Assembly: GCA_965372835.1 (NCBI GenBank)
Contig: CBDVDV010000002.1
Coordinates: 179 to 64,178 of the forward strand
Direction: 5' to 3'
Source: an uncultured bacterium
GTDB lineage: Bacteria > Planctomycetota > DG-23 > CBDVDV01
Length of the DNA stretch: 64,000 bases
Shown here: positions 4,280 to 24,545 of the stretch, in pieces
Position numbering within the stretch: the first letter of the stretch is position 1
How the letters are laid out: each line of letters starts with the position of its first letter
Notes under the pieces: generated by a model
The model's input: only the letters and a program-made list of their open reading frames with translations
The model's database searches: none
Told to the model about the DNA's origin: nothing
Program-made: the position numbers and the translations under genes

Positions 4280-4354
4280 GCTAGGGTAGCTCAATGGCAG
4301 AGCCCCCGCCTTGTAAGCGGGCTGTTGCGAGTTCGAATCTCGCCCCTAGCTCCA
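4280..4354 (+). tRNA. tRNA-Thr (anticodon TGT)
   Basis: Manual cloverleaf: acceptor GCTAGGG/CCCTAGC, anticodon loop CTTGTAA, T-loop TTCGAAT, CCA encoded. Confidence 0.85.
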
Positions 4355-4441
4355 GGAGAGGTGGCTCAGCGGGACCGGCGAGAGGGGCGTTGACGCGTGG
4401 TCCCGGTGGTGCTACACTCGGTGGGTTGGTGGTTGTGTGGT

Positions 4442-4526
4442 GGGGAGATACCCAAGTGGTCAAAGGGAGCAGACTGTAAATCTGTTGGCATCGCCTTCGG
4501 GGGTTCGAATCCCTCTCTCCCCACCA
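4442..4526 (+). tRNA. tRNA-Tyr (anticodon GTA), long variable arm
   Basis: Anticodon arm CAGACTGTAAATCTG identical to bacterial tRNA-Tyr. T-loop TTCGAAT, CCA encoded. Confidence 0.85.
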
Positions 4527-4590
4527 GTCGAGGTCGCCGAAGGCGACGGCGCCGCGCGTTGCACGCTGCGTATCCGAAAGTATGCGGGAG

Positions 4591-4664
4591 GCGGGCGTAG
4601 CTCAAAGGTAGAGCCCTGGCCTTCCAAGCCAGTCGTGAGGGTTCGATTCCCTTCGCCCGCTCCA
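4591..4664 (+). tRNA. tRNA-Gly (anticodon TCC)
   Basis: Acceptor GCGGGCG/CGCCCGC, anticodon loop CTTCCAA, T-loop TTCGATT, CCA encoded. Confidence 0.85.
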
Positions 4665-4693
4665 GATTTTTGTATTTTCCCTCATTTTTTGCC

Positions 4694-4723
4694 TTGACTG
4701 GGGAGCCCTGGGAATCGTATCAT
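4694..4723 (+). promoter_or_regulatory. candidate internal promoter (TTGACT-18-TATCAT) ahead of tRNA-Thr(GGT)-tuf
   Basis: Hexamers read directly in the T-rich spacer after tRNA-Gly. Confidence 0.3.
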
Positions 4724-4778
4724 GCGGGTTTGTAGGGAATCCCTTCTCTTGCAACGCTCAGTAGGTCAGGCAGTAGTG

Positions 4779-4853
4779 GCTGCTGTAGCTCAGTGGTAGA
4801 GCGCTTCCTTGGTAAGGAAGAGGTCATGGGTTCGACCCCCATCAGCAGCTCCA
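4779..4853 (+). tRNA. tRNA-Thr (anticodon GGT)
   Basis: Acceptor GCTGCTG/CAGCAGC, anticodon loop TTGGTAA, T-arm ATGGG-TTCGACC-CCCAT, CCA encoded. Confidence 0.85.
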
Positions 4854-4901: not shown

Positions 4902-6101
4902 ATGGCCAAACAGAAGTTTGAGCGGACCAAGCCGCACATGAACATCGGCACCATTGGTCACGTGGACCACGGCAAGACGACGCTGACCAGCGCCATCACC
5001 TTGAACTTGGCCACCCGTGGGTTGGCTAAGGAGCGGTCCTTCGACTCCATTGACAACGCCCCGGAGGAACGGGAGCGCGGGCTGACCATTCAGGTGGCCC
5101 ACGTGGAGTACGAGACCGAGAAGCGCCACTACGCCCACATCGACTGTCCGGGCCACGCTGACTACATCAAGAACATGATTACCGGAGCGGCGCAGATGGA
5201 CGGAGCCGTTCTGGTGGTGGCCGCGGACGATGGTCCCATGCCCCAGACCCGAGAGCACATCCTCCTGGCCCGTCAGGTGGGCTTGCCCGCCTTGGTGGTG
5301 TTCCTCAACAAGGTGGACCTGGTGGACGACGAGGAGCTTCTGGAGTTGGTGGAGATGGAAGTGCGGGAACTGCTGAGCCGCTACGAGTTCCCCGGAGACG
5401 ACGTGCCCATCATCCGCGGCAGTGCCCTCAAGGCGATGCAGGACCCTTCCGGGGAGCCTGAGGACCCCAACGTGAAGTGCATCTTTGAGTTGATGCAGGC
5501 GGTGGACGATTACTTTCCGGAGCCGGTGCGCGACGTGGACCGGCCATTCCTGATGCCGGTGGAGGACGTGTTCTCCATCAAGGGTCGAGGGACGGTGGGC
5601 ACGGGCCGGGTCGAGCGCGGTCAGCTCCGGGTTGGCGACGAGGTGGACATTGTGGGTCTGGCTGAGACCAGGACCACGGTGGCCACGGGCGTCGAGATGT
5701 TCAACAAGACCCTGGAAGACGGCATGGCGGGTGACAACATCGGTGTGCTGTTGCGGGGGGTGGAGAAGGAGGAGTTGGAGCGGGGCATGGTGCTGGCCGC
5801 ACCGGGGTCGATCACACCCCACACCCGGTTCCGTGGACAGGTGTACGTGCTGAGCGCGGACGAGGGAGGTCGTCACACGCCCTTCTTCACCGGCTACCGG
5901 CCGCAGTTTTACTTCCGGACCACGGACGTGACCGGGTCGGTGACGCTGCCTGACGGTGTGGAGATGGTGATGCCGGGCGACAATGTGGAACTTGAGGTGC
6001 AGTTGATCAAGCCCATCGCCCTGGAAGAGGCGGTGCGGTTTGCCATCCGCGAGGGCGGCCACACGGTGGGAGCGGGCCTGGTCACCAAGGTGCTGGAATA
6101 G
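4902..6101 (+). CDS. tuf: elongation factor Tu
   Basis: 399 aa. [10 protein letters not shown]-loop, [12 protein letters not shown] motifs. GGAGGAGG RBS. Confidence 0.97.
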
Positions 6102-6179: not shown

Positions 6180-6329
6180 ATGCGAGAATACGTGACTTTG
6201 CAGTGCGGCGAATGCGCCAGGTACAACTACCGGACCTCCTTCAATACCACGGGGGGCAAGCGGATATCGCTGAGCAAGTTCTGTCGTTTTTGCCGAAAGC
6301 ACACCGTGCACAAGAGTCGTCGTCGGTAG
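6180..6329 (+). CDS. rpmG: 50S ribosomal protein L33 (zinc-ribbon type)
   Basis: 49-aa ORF not in the track (below 60 aa): MREYVTLQCGECARYNYRTSFNTTGGKRISLSKFCRFCRKHTVHKSRRR with CxxC..CxxC. Canonical position between tuf and tRNA-Trp/secE. Confidence 0.8.
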   Translation: MREYVTLQCGECARYNYRTSFNTTGGKRISLSKFCRFCRKHTVHKSRRR

Positions 6330-6351
6330 TCCTGTCGTCTGTGTGTCGGGG

Positions 6352-6428
6352 AGGCCTGTAGCTCTAATTGGTAGAGCGCCGGACTCCAAATCCGGTGGTT
6401 GGGGGTTCGAATCCCTCCAGGCCTGCCA
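6352..6428 (+). tRNA. tRNA-Trp (anticodon CCA)
   Basis: Acceptor AGGCCTG/CAGGCCT, anticodon loop CTCCAAA, T-loop TTCGAAT, CCA encoded. Confidence 0.85.
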
Positions 6429-16500: not shown

Positions 16501-17691
16501 CTGGAGCGCCATACCGTTCCCGCCGGGGCCGCGTTGTCCGTCCGCGAGGGCAAGACGGTCAAGAAGGGGGCGCTGCTGGTGCGCTGGGACCCGCACATGA
16601 TCCCCATCCTGGGCGAAGAGGGTGGCTTCGTCCGCTTCGAGGACATCGTCGAGGGTGAAACCATGCGCCAGGAGGTGGACCAGAGTACCGGCATCGCCCG
16701 CAAGGTCATCGTCGAGCACAAAGGCGCCCTCCACCCCCAACTCATCATCGAGGACAAAAAGGGCAAGATCCTCACCCTCTACCCCCTGCCCGAAAAGGCC
16801 AACATCGAGGTGGAGCAGGGCCAGGAGGTAGCCGCGGGGGCCCTGCTGGCCAAGACCCCGCGTGAGTTGGGTGGGACCCAGGACATCACCGCCGGGCTCC
16901 CCCGGGTGACCGAACTCTTCGAGGCCCGCCGACCCAAGGACCCGGCCGTCATCAGCGAGATCGACGGGAAGGTGGAACTGGGCGAGAAGCGCCGGGGTCG
17001 GCGAACCATCGTCGTTCGCAACCCGGAAAGCGGCATGGCCCGCGAACACCTGGTGCCCCCGGGCGCCCACCTGCGGGTGCACGCCGCCGATGTGGTGCGG
17101 GCGGGTCAGCCGCTGGTGGACGGCCCACTGGTCCCCCACGACATTCTCAAGATCAGCGGCGAGGAGGCCCTCCAACAGTACCTGCTTCGGGAGATCCAGA
17201 GCGTCTACCACAGCCAGGACGTCACCATCAGCGACCAGCACATCGAACTGATGACCGCCCAGATGATGAGGCGGGTGCGGGTCACCGACCCGGGTGACGG
17301 TGAGTTCCTCATGGGCGAGGTGGTGGACAAGTTCGCCTTTCGTCAGGCCAACCGACAACTGGAGGCCCAGGGGCTGGGGCCCGCTGCCGCCGAGCCCATC
17401 CTCCTGGGGGTGACCAAGGCCGCTCTCAGGAGTGACAGCTTCATCTCCGCCGCCAGTTTCCAGGAGACGACCAAGGTGTTGACCGAGGCGGCGTTGGCCG
17501 GTCGACGGGACCCGCTGGTGGGCCTGAAGGAGAACGTTATCCTCGGTCACCTCATCCCGGCCGGGACCGGTTTCCGCAACTACACCCGCTCCCGACTGCT
17601 GAAGTTGCTGCCTGAGGCGCCGGCTGAGGCCGAGGCTGCCGAGGCCGAGGACGAGCCGGCCTCGAAGGCCGAGAAGCCACCGGCGGCCTGA
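13543..17691 (+). CDS. rpoC: DNA-directed RNA polymerase subunit beta'
   Basis: Zn-finger CERIFGP..CFCGKYK..CDRCG and NADFDGD active site. ATG 13543 has an AAGGAG RBS 8 nt upstream and matches the conserved N-terminal spacing. The alternative is GTG 13492. Confidence 0.95.
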
Positions 17692-18126: not shown

Positions 18127-18603
18127 ATGGCCATGAAGCGGCCAACCGCTTCCAAGAAACAGCTGAAACCCGACCCCCGCTACAACAACCTGATGGTCAG
18201 CAAGTTCATCAACTGCATGATGTGGGGCGGGAAAAAGAGTGTGGCTCAGAACATCTTTTACGACGCCCTTGGCCTCATCGCTGAGCGAGTCAAGGACGCC
18301 GAGCCCCTGGAGGTGTTCCAGGCGGCTATCGAGAACGTGAAGCCCAAGGTGGAGGTGCGCTCGCGCCGAGTCGGCGGGGCCACGTACCAGGTACCGGTGG
18401 AGGTGAGCCGGCAGCGCCGCCAAGCCCTGGCCGTCCGCTGGATTCTCCGGGCCGCTCGGGCCCGCACCGGTCGGCCGATGTACCGTCGGCTGGCCGATGA
18501 ACTGATGGCGGCCTATCGCCGGGAGGGCGCGGCGATACAGACCCGGGAAAACATCCACCGGATGGCCGACGCCAACAAGGCCTTCGCCCACTTCGCTTGG
18601 TAG
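18127..18603 (+). CDS. rpsG: 30S ribosomal protein S7
   Basis: 158 aa S7 family. Confidence 0.95.
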
Positions 18604-18728: not shown

Positions 18729-20804
18729 ATGAACGACAGCAACAACAACCAGGCACGGGGCGAGCGGCTGCGGAACATCGGTTTCGCCGCGCACATCGAC
18801 GCCGGCAAGACCACGGTCACCGAGCGCATCCTCTTCTACACCGGCTGCTCCCACCGCATGGGCGAGGTGCACGACGGTACCGCCACCATGGACTGGATGC
18901 CCGAGGAGCAGGAGCGGGGCATCACCATCACCTCCGCGGCCACCACCTGCCCCTGGCGCGACCAGCAGATCAACATCATCGACACCCCCGGCCACGTCGA
19001 CTTCACGGCCGAGGTGGAGCGGACCCTGCGGGTGCTGGACGGGGTCATCATCGTCTTCTGTGGGGTGGGTGGTGTGGAGGCCCAGTCGGAGACGGTCTGG
19101 CGACAGGCCGACCGCTACCGGGTTCCCCGACTGGCCTTCGTCAATAAGTTGGACCGGCCTGGGGCCGATTTCGATGCCGTGGTCGAGGAGATCCGCGGGC
19201 GGCTGGGCGCCCGTCCGGTCGCCGTCCACATGCCTTACTATGTGGGTGAGGAGTTCCGGGGGCTGGTGGACCTGGTGGAGATGAGGCTCGTCCTCTGGGC
19301 GGACGACACCCCGGACGCGGAGTTCAGCCGCCAGCCCATCCCCGAAGATCTCCTCGCTGAGGCCCGCCACCGCCACGAGGCGCTCCTGGAGCGGCTGGCC
19401 GAGACCTGCGACTGGGTCATGGAACGCTACGTCCACGACCACGAACTGGACCCCCAGAGCATTCGCCGGGCCCTCAGACAGGCCACCATCTCCCTCGACC
19501 TGGTGCCGGTGCTCTGTGGGGCGGCCCTGCGCAACAAGGGAATTCAGCCGTTGCTCGACGCCGTCTGCGACTACCTGCCCAGCCCCCTGGACCTGCCACC
19601 CGTCCAGGGCGTCCACCCCAAGACCGGAAAACCGACCGAGAGGCGGGCCAGCCCCGATGAGGCCCTGGCGGCGTTGGCCTTCAAGGTGGTGGCCGACGCC
19701 CACGGTGACCTGGTGTTCCTGCGCCTGTACTCGGGCCGACTGCGCCCCGGCGTCCGGGTCTACAACCCGGTCAAGCGCGCCTCCGAGCTGGTCACCCGCA
19801 TCTGGCGCATGCACGCCAATCAGCGCACCGCGCTGGAGGAGGCCGTTGCCGGCGACATCGTGGCCGTGGTCGGCCTCAAGCAGACCACCACCGGCGACAC
19901 CCTGTGCGACCGCAGTCACCACATCGTCCTGGAGCGTCCCGCCTTCCCCCAGACGGTCATCTCCATGGCCATCGAGCCCAGAAGTTCCGCCGACCGGAAC
20001 CGCCTGGTTGAGACCCTCAACAAACTCGCCCGCGAGGACCCCACCTTCAACTGGCGCTACAATGAGGAGACCGGGCAAGTGCTCATCTCGGGCATGGGCG
20101 AACTCCACCTGGAGGTCCTCGGCCACCGGATGCTCCAGGAGTTCAGATTGGACGCCAAGGTGGGTCGGCCCAGGGTGGCCTTCAAGGAGACGGTCAAGGC
20201 GGAGGCCACCGCCGAGGGTCGCCTTATCAAGCAGACCGGCGGCCGGGGGCAGTACGCACGAGTGACCCTCCGGGTGGCTCCAGACCCCGGCACCCTGGAC
20301 GTGCAGTTTCAGGACAAGACCCGCGGCGGCGTTATCCCCAGGCAGTTCATGCGGGCCGTTGAGCAAGGTGTCCGCGAGGCCGCGGCCTCGGGGCCCGTAT
20401 GGGGCTACCCCCTCATCGACGTGGCCGTGGTCGTGCTGGACGGAGCCTTCCACGAGGTCGATTCTTCTGACGTGGCCTTCCACGCCGCCGCCAGCCAGGC
20501 CCTGAACCAGGCCGCCGAGCAGGCCGGCGTGGTGCTGCTGGAGCCCATTATGCGCCTGGAGGTGGCGGTCCCGGAGGAGTACATGGGCGACGTTCTGGCC
20601 GACCTCAACAATCGACGGACCGAGATTACCGAGGTCAAGAGGCGAGCGAAGATGTGTTTCATCGAAGGACGGGTTCCGCTGGCCACCATGTTCGGCTACG
20701 CCACCGCCGTGCGCTCGCTGAGCCAGGGCCGAGCCACTTTCACCATGGAGCCTTGTGCCTACGCTCCCGTACCGCAGGAGATGTATGAGGAAATCCAGGT
20801 CTGA
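18729..20804 (+). CDS. fusA: elongation factor G
   Basis: [10 protein letters not shown]-loop and full five-domain EF-G. ATG 18729 chosen (the track ORF extension overlaps rpsG). Confidence 0.95.
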
Positions 20805-20841
20805 GGAGGCGTGTCGGGGGAGCGGTCAAGGAGACGAGCCG

Positions 20842-21000
20842 ATGGCCCGGGAGAACCTGGGGCGGACGAAGCCCCGCATGAACATGGGCGCTATTGGTCA
20901 CGTGGAGGACGGGCGCGGCGGGGAGCGTGAGCCTGCCTGTTGTGCCCTCCGCGAGGGCGGCCACACGGGCGGAGCCGGCCCGGGCACCGAGGTGCTGGAG
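20842..21000 (+). pseudogene. relic of a second tuf copy (str-operon tufA type) with large internal deletion
   Basis: MARENLGRTKPRMNMGAIGHVEDG matches the EF-Tu N-terminus. ALREGGHTGGAGPGTEVLE matches the EF-Tu C-terminus. ~340 codons are missing between them. RBS retained. The reading frame runs on into the S10 promoter. Confidence 0.8.
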
Positions 21001-21063
21001 CGAGGTGCGGGAATGAAAGGCCGAGAAAAGTGCGGAGAATCGGGGAAAATCCCCGGAAAAGAG

Positions 21064-21092: not shown

Positions 21093-21170
21093 ACAGGTTT
21101 GTGTATTTCTCGCGGCCATTGACCCTGAAGGCGCTTCTGCAGGCTGGCTGCGTCCCGGTAGAGGGTAACG

Positions 21171-21479
21171 ATGAGCGACCAAAAGATACGCATCCGCATG
21201 GAAGCCTACGACCACCGGGTGCTGGACCGCTGCGCCCGGCAGATCGTGGATACGGCTCTGCGCACGGGGGCGGTGGTCAAGGGGCCCATCCCACTGCCGA
21301 CCCGCATCGAGCGTTTCACGGTGCTCCGCGGTCCGAACATCGACAAGGAATCGCGCGAGCAGTTCGAAATCCGCACCCACAAGCGGCTTATTGACATCGC
21401 CGAGCCGACGGCCAAGACCATGGACGCCCTGGGTCGGCTGGCCCTGCCGGCCGGGGTCTTCATCAAGATCAAGGCTTGA
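21171..21479 (+). CDS. rpsJ: 30S ribosomal protein S10
   Basis: 102 aa S10. Confidence 0.97.
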
Positions 21480-22167: not shown

Positions 22168-22794
22168 ATGAAGATTCCAGTGTACAACCAGGCCGGCGAG
22201 CAAGTCCAGGAGGAGGAACTGGACCTCGAGCGGCTGGGGCCGGTCAGGATGAAACTGTTGAAGCAGGTGGTTTTGGCCTACGAGGCCAACCGCCGGGTGG
22301 GCACCGCCTCCACCAAGCGCCGCGGCGAGATCGCCGGTTCCGGTCGCAAAATGTACCGCCAGAAGGGCACGGGCTTCGCCCGCATGGGCGGCCGCCGAAG
22401 CCCCATCCGCGTGGGTGGGAGCGTGGCCCACGGCCCCAGACCCCGCGACTATCGCCAGGCCATTCCCAAGCGGATGCGCCGAGGGGCGCTGGCCAGCGCC
22501 CTGGCCGGGAAGTTGGGTGATGGTGAAGTGGTCCTGCTCCAGGAGTTGTCACTGACCGAGCCCAAGACCAAAGCGGTGGCCGAACTGCTGGATCGGCTGG
22601 GCTGCCTGGACGGGTGTCTGCTGGTGGTGCCCGAGTACGACACCGTGGTGCTCAAGAGCACCCGTAACCTGCCCCGGGTGGCGGTAAGACAGGCCCGCAA
22701 CGTCAGTGCTTACGACCTGCTCCGCTACCAGCGGGTCGTCTTCGTGGGTGAGGCCCTGGACCGGGTGATGGAGCGGAGCCATGGCCAGAAGTAG
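22168..22794 (+). CDS. rplD: 50S ribosomal protein L4
   Basis: L4 family; ATG after GTG 22165. Confidence 0.93.
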
Positions 22795-23065
22795 GTACCA
22801 GATCGTCCTGGAACCGGTGGTCACTGAAAAGAGCGTGGCCGCCTCCGAGCGACAGAACATTTACACCTTCCGGGTGGACCCAAAGGCGACCAAGGGGCAG
22901 ATCAAGCAGGCGGTCGAGGAGATCTTCGGGGTGCAGGTGACCGCGGTGCGTACCATGACCACCCACTCCAAGCGTCGACGGGTGCGGGGACGGATGACCC
23001 GCAGCCACCTGGGCAAGAAGGCGGTGGTCAAGGTGGCCGCCGAGGACCGTATCGATATCTTCTGA
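22781..23065 (+). CDS. rplW: 50S ribosomal protein L23
   Basis: 94 aa L23. Confidence 0.95.
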   Translation: MARSRYQIVLEPVVTEKSVAASERQNIYTFRVDPKATKGQIKQAVEEIFGVQVTAVRTMTTHSKRRRVRGRMTRSHLGKKAVVKVAAEDRIDIF

Positions 23066-23122: not shown

Positions 23123-23689
23123 ATGACCGTCTCGAAGATGGCTGCACTGGGCGCGTTGATGCTGGCGTGCATCCTGCTGGTCTGGATGGTGGTGGGCTCC
23201 CGCGAGCCGGCGACCGAGACCCAGGGCGTGGCCGGCGCGGTCAAAGGCGAGACCTACGAGGACGCCGGCCTGGGCTTTGCGTTTGAGTTCCCGGCCGATT
23301 GGGTGAAGACCGATACCCCTCAGTTGGGGGCTGACGCCACCTTTTTGGGCCCCCGACGCAGCGACTTGACCATGAGCCTGGACATCCGCAGCGACGACAC
23401 CCCTACCGCGCTGGGCGTGTATGTGGATCGCTCCATCAAGAAGGTGCTGCCGGAGTACCGAACCGACTTCAGGCTGTTGGAAGAGCCGACCATGATGGAG
23501 GGCACCGTCAGTGCTATGAAGATGGCCTACAGTTATCGCGAGGGAGCGTTCGAGCTGACCAACGTCCAGGCGGTTTACGCGCTGCCGAACCGCAAGATCA
23601 TCCTGAGCTTTTGCCTGCTGAGTGAGCACTACGAAAAACTGAAGCCGGTGGTCGAGAACACCTTTAAGTCCTTCCGGCAGTTGAGGTGA
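23123..23689 (+). CDS. hypothetical secreted/membrane-anchored protein inserted in the S10 operon (possible DcrB/PsbP-like fold)
   Basis: 188 aa. N-terminal TM/signal ([19 protein letters not shown]). AAGGAG RBS. Weak resemblance to DUF1795/DcrB ([10 protein letters not shown]). Confidence 0.55.
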
Positions 23690-23705: not shown

Positions 23706-24545
23706 ATGGCGCTGAAACAGTATAAACCGACCTCAGCCGGTCGCCGGTTCCTGGTCAACGTCGATTCTTCCGACATCACCAGGAAGCGACCGGAGAAGTC
23801 GCTGCTCCGCCCGTTGAAAAAGACGGGCGGCCGGAACTTCCAGGGGATCATCACCCATCACAATCGGGGCGGCGGCCACAAGCGCCGCTACCGGGTGATC
23901 GACTGGCGGCGCGACAAGGACGGTGTGCCGGGACGGGTGGCTTCCATTGAATACGATCCCAACCGGTCGGCCCGTATCGCCCTGCTCCACTACGCTGACG
24001 GCGAGAAACGCTACATCCTGGCGCCCGCGGGGCTGGCTGTGGGTGACACGGTGACCAGCGGCGAGCGGGTGGAGCCCCGTGTGGGTAACGCCATGGAACT
24101 TCGCTACATTCCCCTGGGTATGCCCGTCCACAATGTCGAACTGCAGCCTGGTCGCGGTGGACAGATGGCGCGGGGGGCGGGCACCTCGGCCACGGTCACC
24201 GCCCGGGAGCAGCGCTACGTGCAGGTAACCTTGCCCTCGGGGGAGGTCCGCCGAATCCTCGGTCGCTGCCGGGCCACCATCGGGGAACTCAGCAACCCCG
24301 ACCACAAGAACATCTCCCTGGGCAAGGCCGGCCGCAGCCGCTGGCTGGGCCGACGACCTCATGTCCGGGGAACTGCGAAGAACCCGGTCGACCACCCGAT
24401 GGGTGGTGGCGAGGGCCGGACCAAGGGCGGCCGCCACCCGGTCTCGGCCACGGGCAAGTTGGCCAAGGGAGGCAAAACCCGACCCCGGAACAAGCCTTCC
24501 AACGCCTTTATCGTGAGACGTCGTCGCCGACGACGTCGGCGGTGA
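23706..24545 (+). CDS. rplB: 50S ribosomal protein L2
   Basis: 279 aa L2 with basic C-terminal tail. Confidence 0.97.

Follow-up and report, generated by a model that had tools for sequence, protein, structure and literature searches.

A stretch of DNA of 64,000 nucleotides (here called the window) was found to carry, directly behind fusA on the plus strand, a short open frame at 20842-21003 that we regard, with a probability of about 0.93, as the non-functional remnant (pseudogene stub) of a tuf gene that formerly closed the str operon rpsL-rpsG-fusA-tuf. The remnant has each of the properties of a duplicate-gene pseudogene for which it was tested, namely homology to the parent gene, an orthologous site, disabling lesions, neutral substitution and an intact paralogue. 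The case is textbook differential tuf loss, in which one of two tuf copies is gone.

Genomic context

The window has the layout of the classical tufB-secE-rpoBC-str-S10 operon cluster (PMC8046335, PMC6735719). The only complete EF-Tu gene within it lies 16 kb upstream of the relic and is followed by rpmG, tRNA-Trp and secE. By synteny with the gene calls of close relatives, secE is followed on its 3′ side by nusG, rplKAJL and rpoB. Downstream, the order is rpoC (ending at 17691), rpsL, rpsG, fusA, relic, rpsJ, rplC and rplD. The features around the two tuf positions, given with reference to L092, a family-level relative with a complete tuf behind fusA, are as follows.

4280-4853, plus strand: four-tRNA array (tRNA-Thr(tgt), tRNA-Tyr, tRNA-Gly(tcc), tRNA-Thr(ggt)), immediately 5′ of the intact tuf
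4902-6101, plus strand: intact tuf, 399 aa, in a tufB-like context
6180-6428, plus strand: rpmG (L33; 6180-6329) and tRNA-Trp (6352-6428), between the intact tuf and secE
18729-20804, plus strand: fusA (EF-G), the final intact str-operon gene, with the likely ATG at 18729; the protein has 691 aa in close relatives and carries EF-G Pfam domains
20805-20841, plus strand: fusA-relic spacer of 37 nt, aligning with the fusA-tuf spacer of L092 and the CAAGGAGA ribosome-binding site
21004-21063, plus strand: A-rich spacer from the old tuf end to the S10 promoter, orthologous to the tuf-rpsJ spacer of L092
21064-21092, plus strand: predicted sigma-70-type promoter of the S10 operon (TTGACC, 17 nt, TATAGT)
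21171-21479, plus strand: rpsJ (ribosomal protein S10; PF00338), the first gene of the S10 operon

A reading made earlier from the letters alone (the sequence-only reading) had placed the functional tuf in a tufB-like spot beside a tRNA-Thr/Tyr/Gly/Thr array, and this array does lie directly upstream of 4902-6101. The same reading had the relic keeping its ribosome-binding site and leading into the S10 promoter. Both elements were located: the old tuf ribosome-binding site AAGGAGA stands at 20828-20834, 7 nt 5′ of the ATG, and the promoter search returned one site on the 3′ side of the relic, TTGACC-17-TATAGT, with 0.2 expected. TTGAC is present in the fusA-rpsJ spacer of every family member. 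Among the near-identical relatives L001-L010 the -35 element TTGACC was invariant, the -10 element took the forms TATAGT, TAAACT, TATATT, TATAAT and TACACT, all keeping TAnnnT, and the stretch between the two was the most diverse of the region (diversity 0.14).

A search for intrinsic terminators in the fusA-rpsJ spacer gave none, and the only hits of an Rfam scan, seven tRNA genes, all lie outside this spacer. A structured RNA in the spacer was considered and rejected, as the segment 20790-21063 folded with z = -1.3, matched no Rfam family and held no terminator.

Two further observations concern gene calls in this part of the window. The mechanically called fusA frame opens with a TTG at 18597, 44 codons upstream of the likely ATG at 18729; in public gene calls the protein has 714 aa in the close relative L002 and 691 aa in others. 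Inside the S10 operon, an ORF of 188 aa with an N-terminal hydrophobic segment (23123-23689, plus strand) lies between rplW (22781-23065) and rplB (23706-24545). Wherever the close or family-level loci extend that far, the rplW-rplB site is occupied by a called gene of 188-195 aa that has no recorded Pfam hit, and the only Pfam signal of the window ORF was a sub-threshold PsbP-like match (E = 0.011). This is an unusual position for a conserved non-ribosomal gene.

Structure of the remnant

Translation of the window from the ATG at 20842 gives MARENLGRTKPRMNMGAIGHVEDG-RGGEREPACC-ALREGGHTGGAGPGTEVLE. The 53 codons after fusA had been described as an EF-Tu N-terminus joined to an EF-Tu C-terminus, and both the frame and the coordinates were borne out. 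The parts of the relic are listed below.

20842-20913, plus strand: relic 5′ fragment, tuf codons 1-24, with the P-loop degraded to GHVEDG
20914-20943, plus strand: 30-nt junction zone, not significantly similar to tuf
20944-21000, plus strand: relic 3′ fragment, tuf codons 381-399, ALREGGHTGGAGPGTEVLE
20988-21008, plus strand: site of a segregating 13-bp deletion, CGAGGTGCTGGAG (20988-21000), with the repeats CGAGGTGC at 20988-20995 and 21001-21008
21001-21003, plus strand: old tuf stop, now CGA (TGA in L092, TAG in the intact tuf of the window)

Pairwise alignment agreed with the earlier claim of high nucleotide identity to both ends of the intact tuf. Positions 20842-20913 were the same as 4902-4973 at 55/72 nt (76%), and 20944-21000 the same as 6042-6098 at 49/57 nt (86%), both in register. 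The local alignment scores of the 5′ and 3′ ends were 62 and 77, as against a baseline of 19.6-19.9 ± 2.4 with a maximum of 28 in 300 shuffles. When the intact tuf was compared by blastn with the whole 64-kb window, just the two relic segments matched, the 5′ segment over 51 nt (84.3%, E = 5e-10) and the 3′ segment over 57 nt (87.7%, E = 2e-14). The homology is far above chance and is restricted to the two ends of the tuf gene. The 5′ fragment was also compared with the str-operon tuf of L092 and agreed with it at 54/72 nt.

The best ungapped model with a single junction places the junction after relic nt 71 and pairs the 88 nt beyond it with the final 88 nt of tuf; 118/159 positions then match. 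Under this model tuf codons 1-24 are joined in frame to codons ~371-399, and the net loss is 1,038 nt. The large internal deletion proposed from the sequence alone was retained, and its size corrected from ~340 codons to 346. The 30 nt at 20914-20943 would then fall on tuf codons 371-380 in register with ~13/30 matches, but scored only 21 against tuf (shuffles 17.4 ± 2.3) and had no significant match to any part of the gene. The internal loss may accordingly have been one in-frame event or several, the middle 30 nt not being confidently tuf. There is a possible 4-nt microhomology (CAAG) at the inferred junction, which is too decayed for this to be confirmed.

Other lesions lie on either side. 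In the window the P-loop GHVDHGKT has decayed to GHVEDGRG, and most relatives read GQVEDGRG there. The stop codon has been lost, so that the frame runs on over 109 codons to a TAA at 21166-21168, 2 nt before the rpsJ ATG. No Pfam family matched the relic even at E ≤ 1. Where a full-length EF-Tu has three domains (GTP_EFTU, D2 and D3) in ~394-400 aa, the relic has 24 N-terminal and ~19-29 C-terminal codons left. A functional EF-Tu gene at this site was rejected on length, P-loop, Pfam and the selection tests given below.

Close relatives

Close relatives were collected by an exact look-up of the S10 protein. Ten contigs came out, assembled with different programs from different samples, and their EF-G is 97-100% identical to that of the window. 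The complete relic, with an identical junction, was present in eight of the ten; of the other two, L005 starts inside the relic yet covers the junction, and L010 starts at the last base of the relic. Repeated genes often break or mis-join metagenome assemblies, and the source of the window is probably a metagenome-assembled genome, which might suggest that two tuf copies had been collapsed or mis-joined during assembly. The identical junction in at least nine independent assemblies, made from different samples with different assemblers, rules this out, and the relic, which departs from the resident tuf at 19-24% of its positions, is thus not built from the reads of that gene; we put the probability of an assembly artefact close to nil. 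At the start of L005 (positions 1-30), ~30 nt unlike the other relatives run into relic sequence at the point equivalent to window 20909. This odd start is probably a contig-end artefact, the alternative being a rearrangement.

Among the relatives with sequence there, the ATG and the ribosome-binding site are kept in all, with the exception of one substitution in the ribosome-binding site of L007. The reading frame is not. Three of nine relatives (L002, L003 and L006) have lost the 13 bp CGAGGTGCTGGAG between the CGAGGTGC direct repeats, by which the frame is shifted and the ORF ends at 53 aa; in the other close relatives it has 108 aa and extends into the S10 leader. Relatives in which the same short ORF is conserved and expressed as a functional peptide had been named beforehand as evidence that would speak against a decayed tuf; with three of the nine frameshifted the frame is not conserved.

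Selection and age

Diversity was measured in the window and its ten close relatives, the data for the relic being few (23 segregating sites). Nucleotide diversity in the relic (0.042) was even across its three codon positions and like that at third positions of fusA (0.040) and rplC (0.049), with values at positions 1 and 2 of 0.016 and 0.012 in fusA and 0 in rpsJ. By codon position, the segregating sites in the tuf-derived parts of the relic were split 8/7/6, as against 76 at positions 1 and 2 together and 117 at position 3 in the genes (Fisher p = 0.009). A neutral 2:1 ratio fitted the relic (p = 0.82) and was rejected for the genes (p = 1e-14).

The consensus of the relic differs at 20 of the 107 sites where four intact tufs of the family agree. 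Thirteen of these changes are at positions 1 or 2; by type, 11 are AT->GC, nine G<->C and none GC->AT. The GC content of the relic (73.6%) stands between that of tuf (63.9%) and that of unconstrained third positions (86-88%), and together with the GC-ward direction of the changes this indicates a sequence drifting to the genomic equilibrium.

The Jukes-Cantor distance of the relic from its inferred intact state is ~0.21. Between the window and L092 the third-position distance is 0.39-0.51 in total, or ~0.2-0.25 per branch. The distance within the window clade is 0.043, and the divergence of the relic is several times larger. On a rough estimate from these distances, constraint would have been lost soon after the split from the L092 lineage and well ahead of the diversification of the sampled clade. 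The stub is an old, long-lived leftover that is still eroding, as in the 13-bp deletion. The sequence-only reading had called it a snapshot of tuf copy-number reduction; the loss of one copy stands, and the recency implied by the word does not, because the relic has drifted by ~0.21 substitutions per site.

These data bear on a different reading, in which the short ORF of 53 or 109 codons has been co-opted, either as a small protein or as a translated spacer that guards fusA-rpsJ read-through from termination or couples translation into rpsJ. The persistence of the ribosome-binding site and ATG described above would be expected of such an element, as would the lack of a terminator between fusA and rpsJ, the survival of so old a relic without deletion, and a frame that, in the window and five relatives, is not closed until 2 nt before the rpsJ ATG. 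However, a frame open from the old stop to rpsJ also arose in 8% of shuffles, which is not significant; the 13-bp frameshift stops the ORF ~140 nt before rpsJ in three relatives; codon positions carry no signature of selection; and past the relic the S10 operon is preceded by a conserved promoter of its own. The element is, moreover, wholly absent from six sister lineages (see below), and frame and peptide are not kept among relatives as they would be in a conserved small ORF or leader peptide. Co-option is very unlikely and a decayed tuf remains the preferred reading of the frame, although the age of the relic and its kept start signals leave a slight chance of a weak residual role.

The same site in wider relatives

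The nearest species representatives found are Planctomycetota metagenome-assembled genomes, with EF-G only 60% identical. At the tuf gene, the L171 lineage is 92% identical to the window in nucleotides. Family-level relatives (EF-G 76-82%) were obtained from a metagenome scan and protein searches, and the fusA-rpsJ interval took four forms.

L092 and L186 (family level): complete 399-codon tuf after fusA
L183: tuf after fusA with a 14-nt frameshifting deletion in codons 4-8
L091, L177, L178, L179, L181 and L184: fusA-rpsJ spacer of 164-275 bp, no more tuf-like than shuffled sequence, with the same TTGAC promoter
Window clade only: fusA-rpsJ spacer of 366 bp with the relic

The EF-G of L092 is 82% identical to that of the window, and both flanks of its tuf align with those of the relic. 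On the 5′ side the alignment covers the fusA end, the ribosome-binding site and the ATG; on the 3′ side it covers the last tuf codons, the stop position, the A-rich spacer (with the motifs AAAAGTG..GAAATC..AAAAG in common between 21004-21063 and the tuf-rpsJ spacer of L092), the promoter and the rpsJ leader. The order fusA-tuf-rpsJ was also present in the outgroups L012 and L096. That the str operon had ancestrally ended in a tuf, as proposed from the window alone, is thus supported by intact genes between fusA and rpsJ in L092, L186, L012 and L096 and by the aligned flanks of L092.

The same comparison bears on whether the relic could be a recent partial duplication, or a gene-conversion tract, copied from the tRNA-linked tuf into the fusA-rpsJ spacer. 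The relic ends are slightly nearer to the window tuf (104/129) than to the str-operon tuf of L092 (98/129), and the family tufs of the two contexts form one clade (80-92% nt identity to one another, 59% to the outgroup str-operon tufs) that is not cleanly split by context and holds no separate deep clades, both of which would suit a copied tract. However, six extra matches in 129 are not significant and are expected from past concerted evolution and shared GC pressure; the bounds of the relic are the exact bounds of the intact L092 tuf, with homologous flanks; and the sister lineage, a second lineage and the outgroups all have an intact tuf at the site. A copied tract is given extremely little weight, and decay in place of the str-operon tuf is preferred. 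Concerted evolution, as treated in PMC6053082 and PMC1780047, predicts that the tufs of two contexts are not split by context.

Number of losses

An EF-G neighbour-joining tree (586 columns, 300 bootstraps) placed L092 as sister to the window clade with 94% bootstrap support. L183 formed a separate branch, L179 was basal, and the groups L177+L178 and L184+L181+L091 each received 100%. Since the str-operon tuf is intact in L092, in the L183/L186 lineage and in the outgroups, the losses must number at least three, falling in L179, in one or two of the groups without any tuf at this site, and in the window clade. On the sequences sampled, the str-operon tuf was therefore lost at least three times in this Planctomycetota-like family, and only the window clade kept a remnant.

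Smaller tuf remnants were sought in the spacers of L091, L177, L178, L179, L181 and L184, and all were at shuffle level. In L178 (5110-5135), GGGTGCTGGGG resembles the last tuf codons GGTGCTGGAG and is too short for significance; it may be a last trace of the lost tuf. In L183 the 14 nt missing from codons 4-8 of the str-operon tuf (2789-2830 of contig Ga0452204_282056) shift the frame, so that the gene is called from Met13 (387 aa); the related contig L186 is complete there. This deletion may mark the beginning of the same kind of decay, or it may be an assembly error in one contig.

Two intact tuf genes on one contig were not found among L173/L177, L174/L178 and L175/L179, which span both positions and have the tufB-like copy only. 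No family genome with two intact copies was observed, the contigs of L092, L183 and L186 being too short to reach the tufB-like position.

Proposed origin and present role

The following course of events would account for the remnant. The ancestor would have held two tuf genes, one after fusA and the other in the position tRNA-Thr/Tyr/Gly/Thr, tuf, rpmG, tRNA-Trp, secE, and gene conversion would have kept the two alike before the loss. EF-Tu is essential, and either tuf is dispensable when two are present (PMC1780047); the str copy could thus be destroyed only while the other existed. As the alignments and diversity data show, an internal deletion removed a net 1,038 nt, leaving codons 1-24 joined to ~371-399, and the stub has since drifted neutrally toward the GC-rich composition of the genome, losing its P-loop and stop codon on the way. 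Erosion is still going on, with the 13-bp slippage deletion in some relatives.

At present the stub most likely has no function of its own and serves as a passive spacer that separates fusA from the promoter of the S10 operon. It is probably co-transcribed with fusA, and its ribosome-binding site and ATG may still direct synthesis of a junk peptide, 53 or 109 residues long. The repeated losses in the family and the unusually long survival of the stub prompt a more elaborate proposal with two parts taken jointly: that selection removes the tuf direct repeat bracketing ~16 kb of essential genes from secE to fusA, since recombination between the tuf repeats would delete them, and that the ribosome-binding site, ATG and ORF of the stub are kept because their translation protects str-to-S10 read-through transcription. 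We see only a small chance that both parts hold.

Significance

The process of differential tuf loss is well known, and the accepted model of tuf evolution is unchanged. A physical remnant does fix the ancestral position of the lost tuf and the kind of loss, an internal deletion, where earlier evidence was mostly copy counts. It also implies, by logic and so indirectly, that a Planctomycetota-like lineage once had two tuf genes; Planctomycetota are not among the phyla reported with tuf duplicates in PMC6053082. The family offers a natural series of str-operon tuf states (intact, possibly frameshifted, stub and clean loss) that could serve to trace how redundant genes with high expression disappear from the conserved ribosomal operon cluster. 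The public 'hypothetical proteins' of 53 and 108 aa at this site should be annotated as a tuf pseudogene. The literature searched contained no description of a tuf remnant in a bacterial str operon, which does not prove that there is none.

Comparison with known systems

In E. coli and Salmonella, tufA ends the str operon after fusA, in the same position as the relic, and tufB follows thrU-tyrU-glyT-thrT upstream of secE-nusG, in the same position as the intact tuf of the window. Unlike those proteobacterial genomes, the Planctomycetota-like host has one intact copy in the window, its str-operon copy being a 159-nt stub, and carries rpmG and tRNA-Trp between tuf and secE.

The disabling deletion, the lost stop, the neutral substitutions and the slippage deletions between direct repeats are those of ordinary bacterial pseudogene remnants. 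Unlike them, the stub descends from one of the most conserved and most highly expressed bacterial genes and lies inside the most conserved operon cluster. Remnants of a tufA pseudogene are present in cycad plastid genomes, where, as here, a decayed fragment stays and the functional copy is elsewhere. In the plastid case the functional gene has moved to the nucleus, whereas in the window a paralogue in the same chromosome segment took over.

A further comparison is with the model of Lathe & Bork 2001, which, as cited in PMC1780047 and PMC6053082, comprises an ancient tuf duplication, concerted evolution and lineage-specific loss. The family fits it in that one tuf position was lost in particular lineages and in that its tufs track the species tree and do not form paralogue clades. 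As represented in the citing papers, the model was inferred from presence and absence, whereas here the loss has left a physical remnant; what this family adds is at least three independent losses of the same copy.
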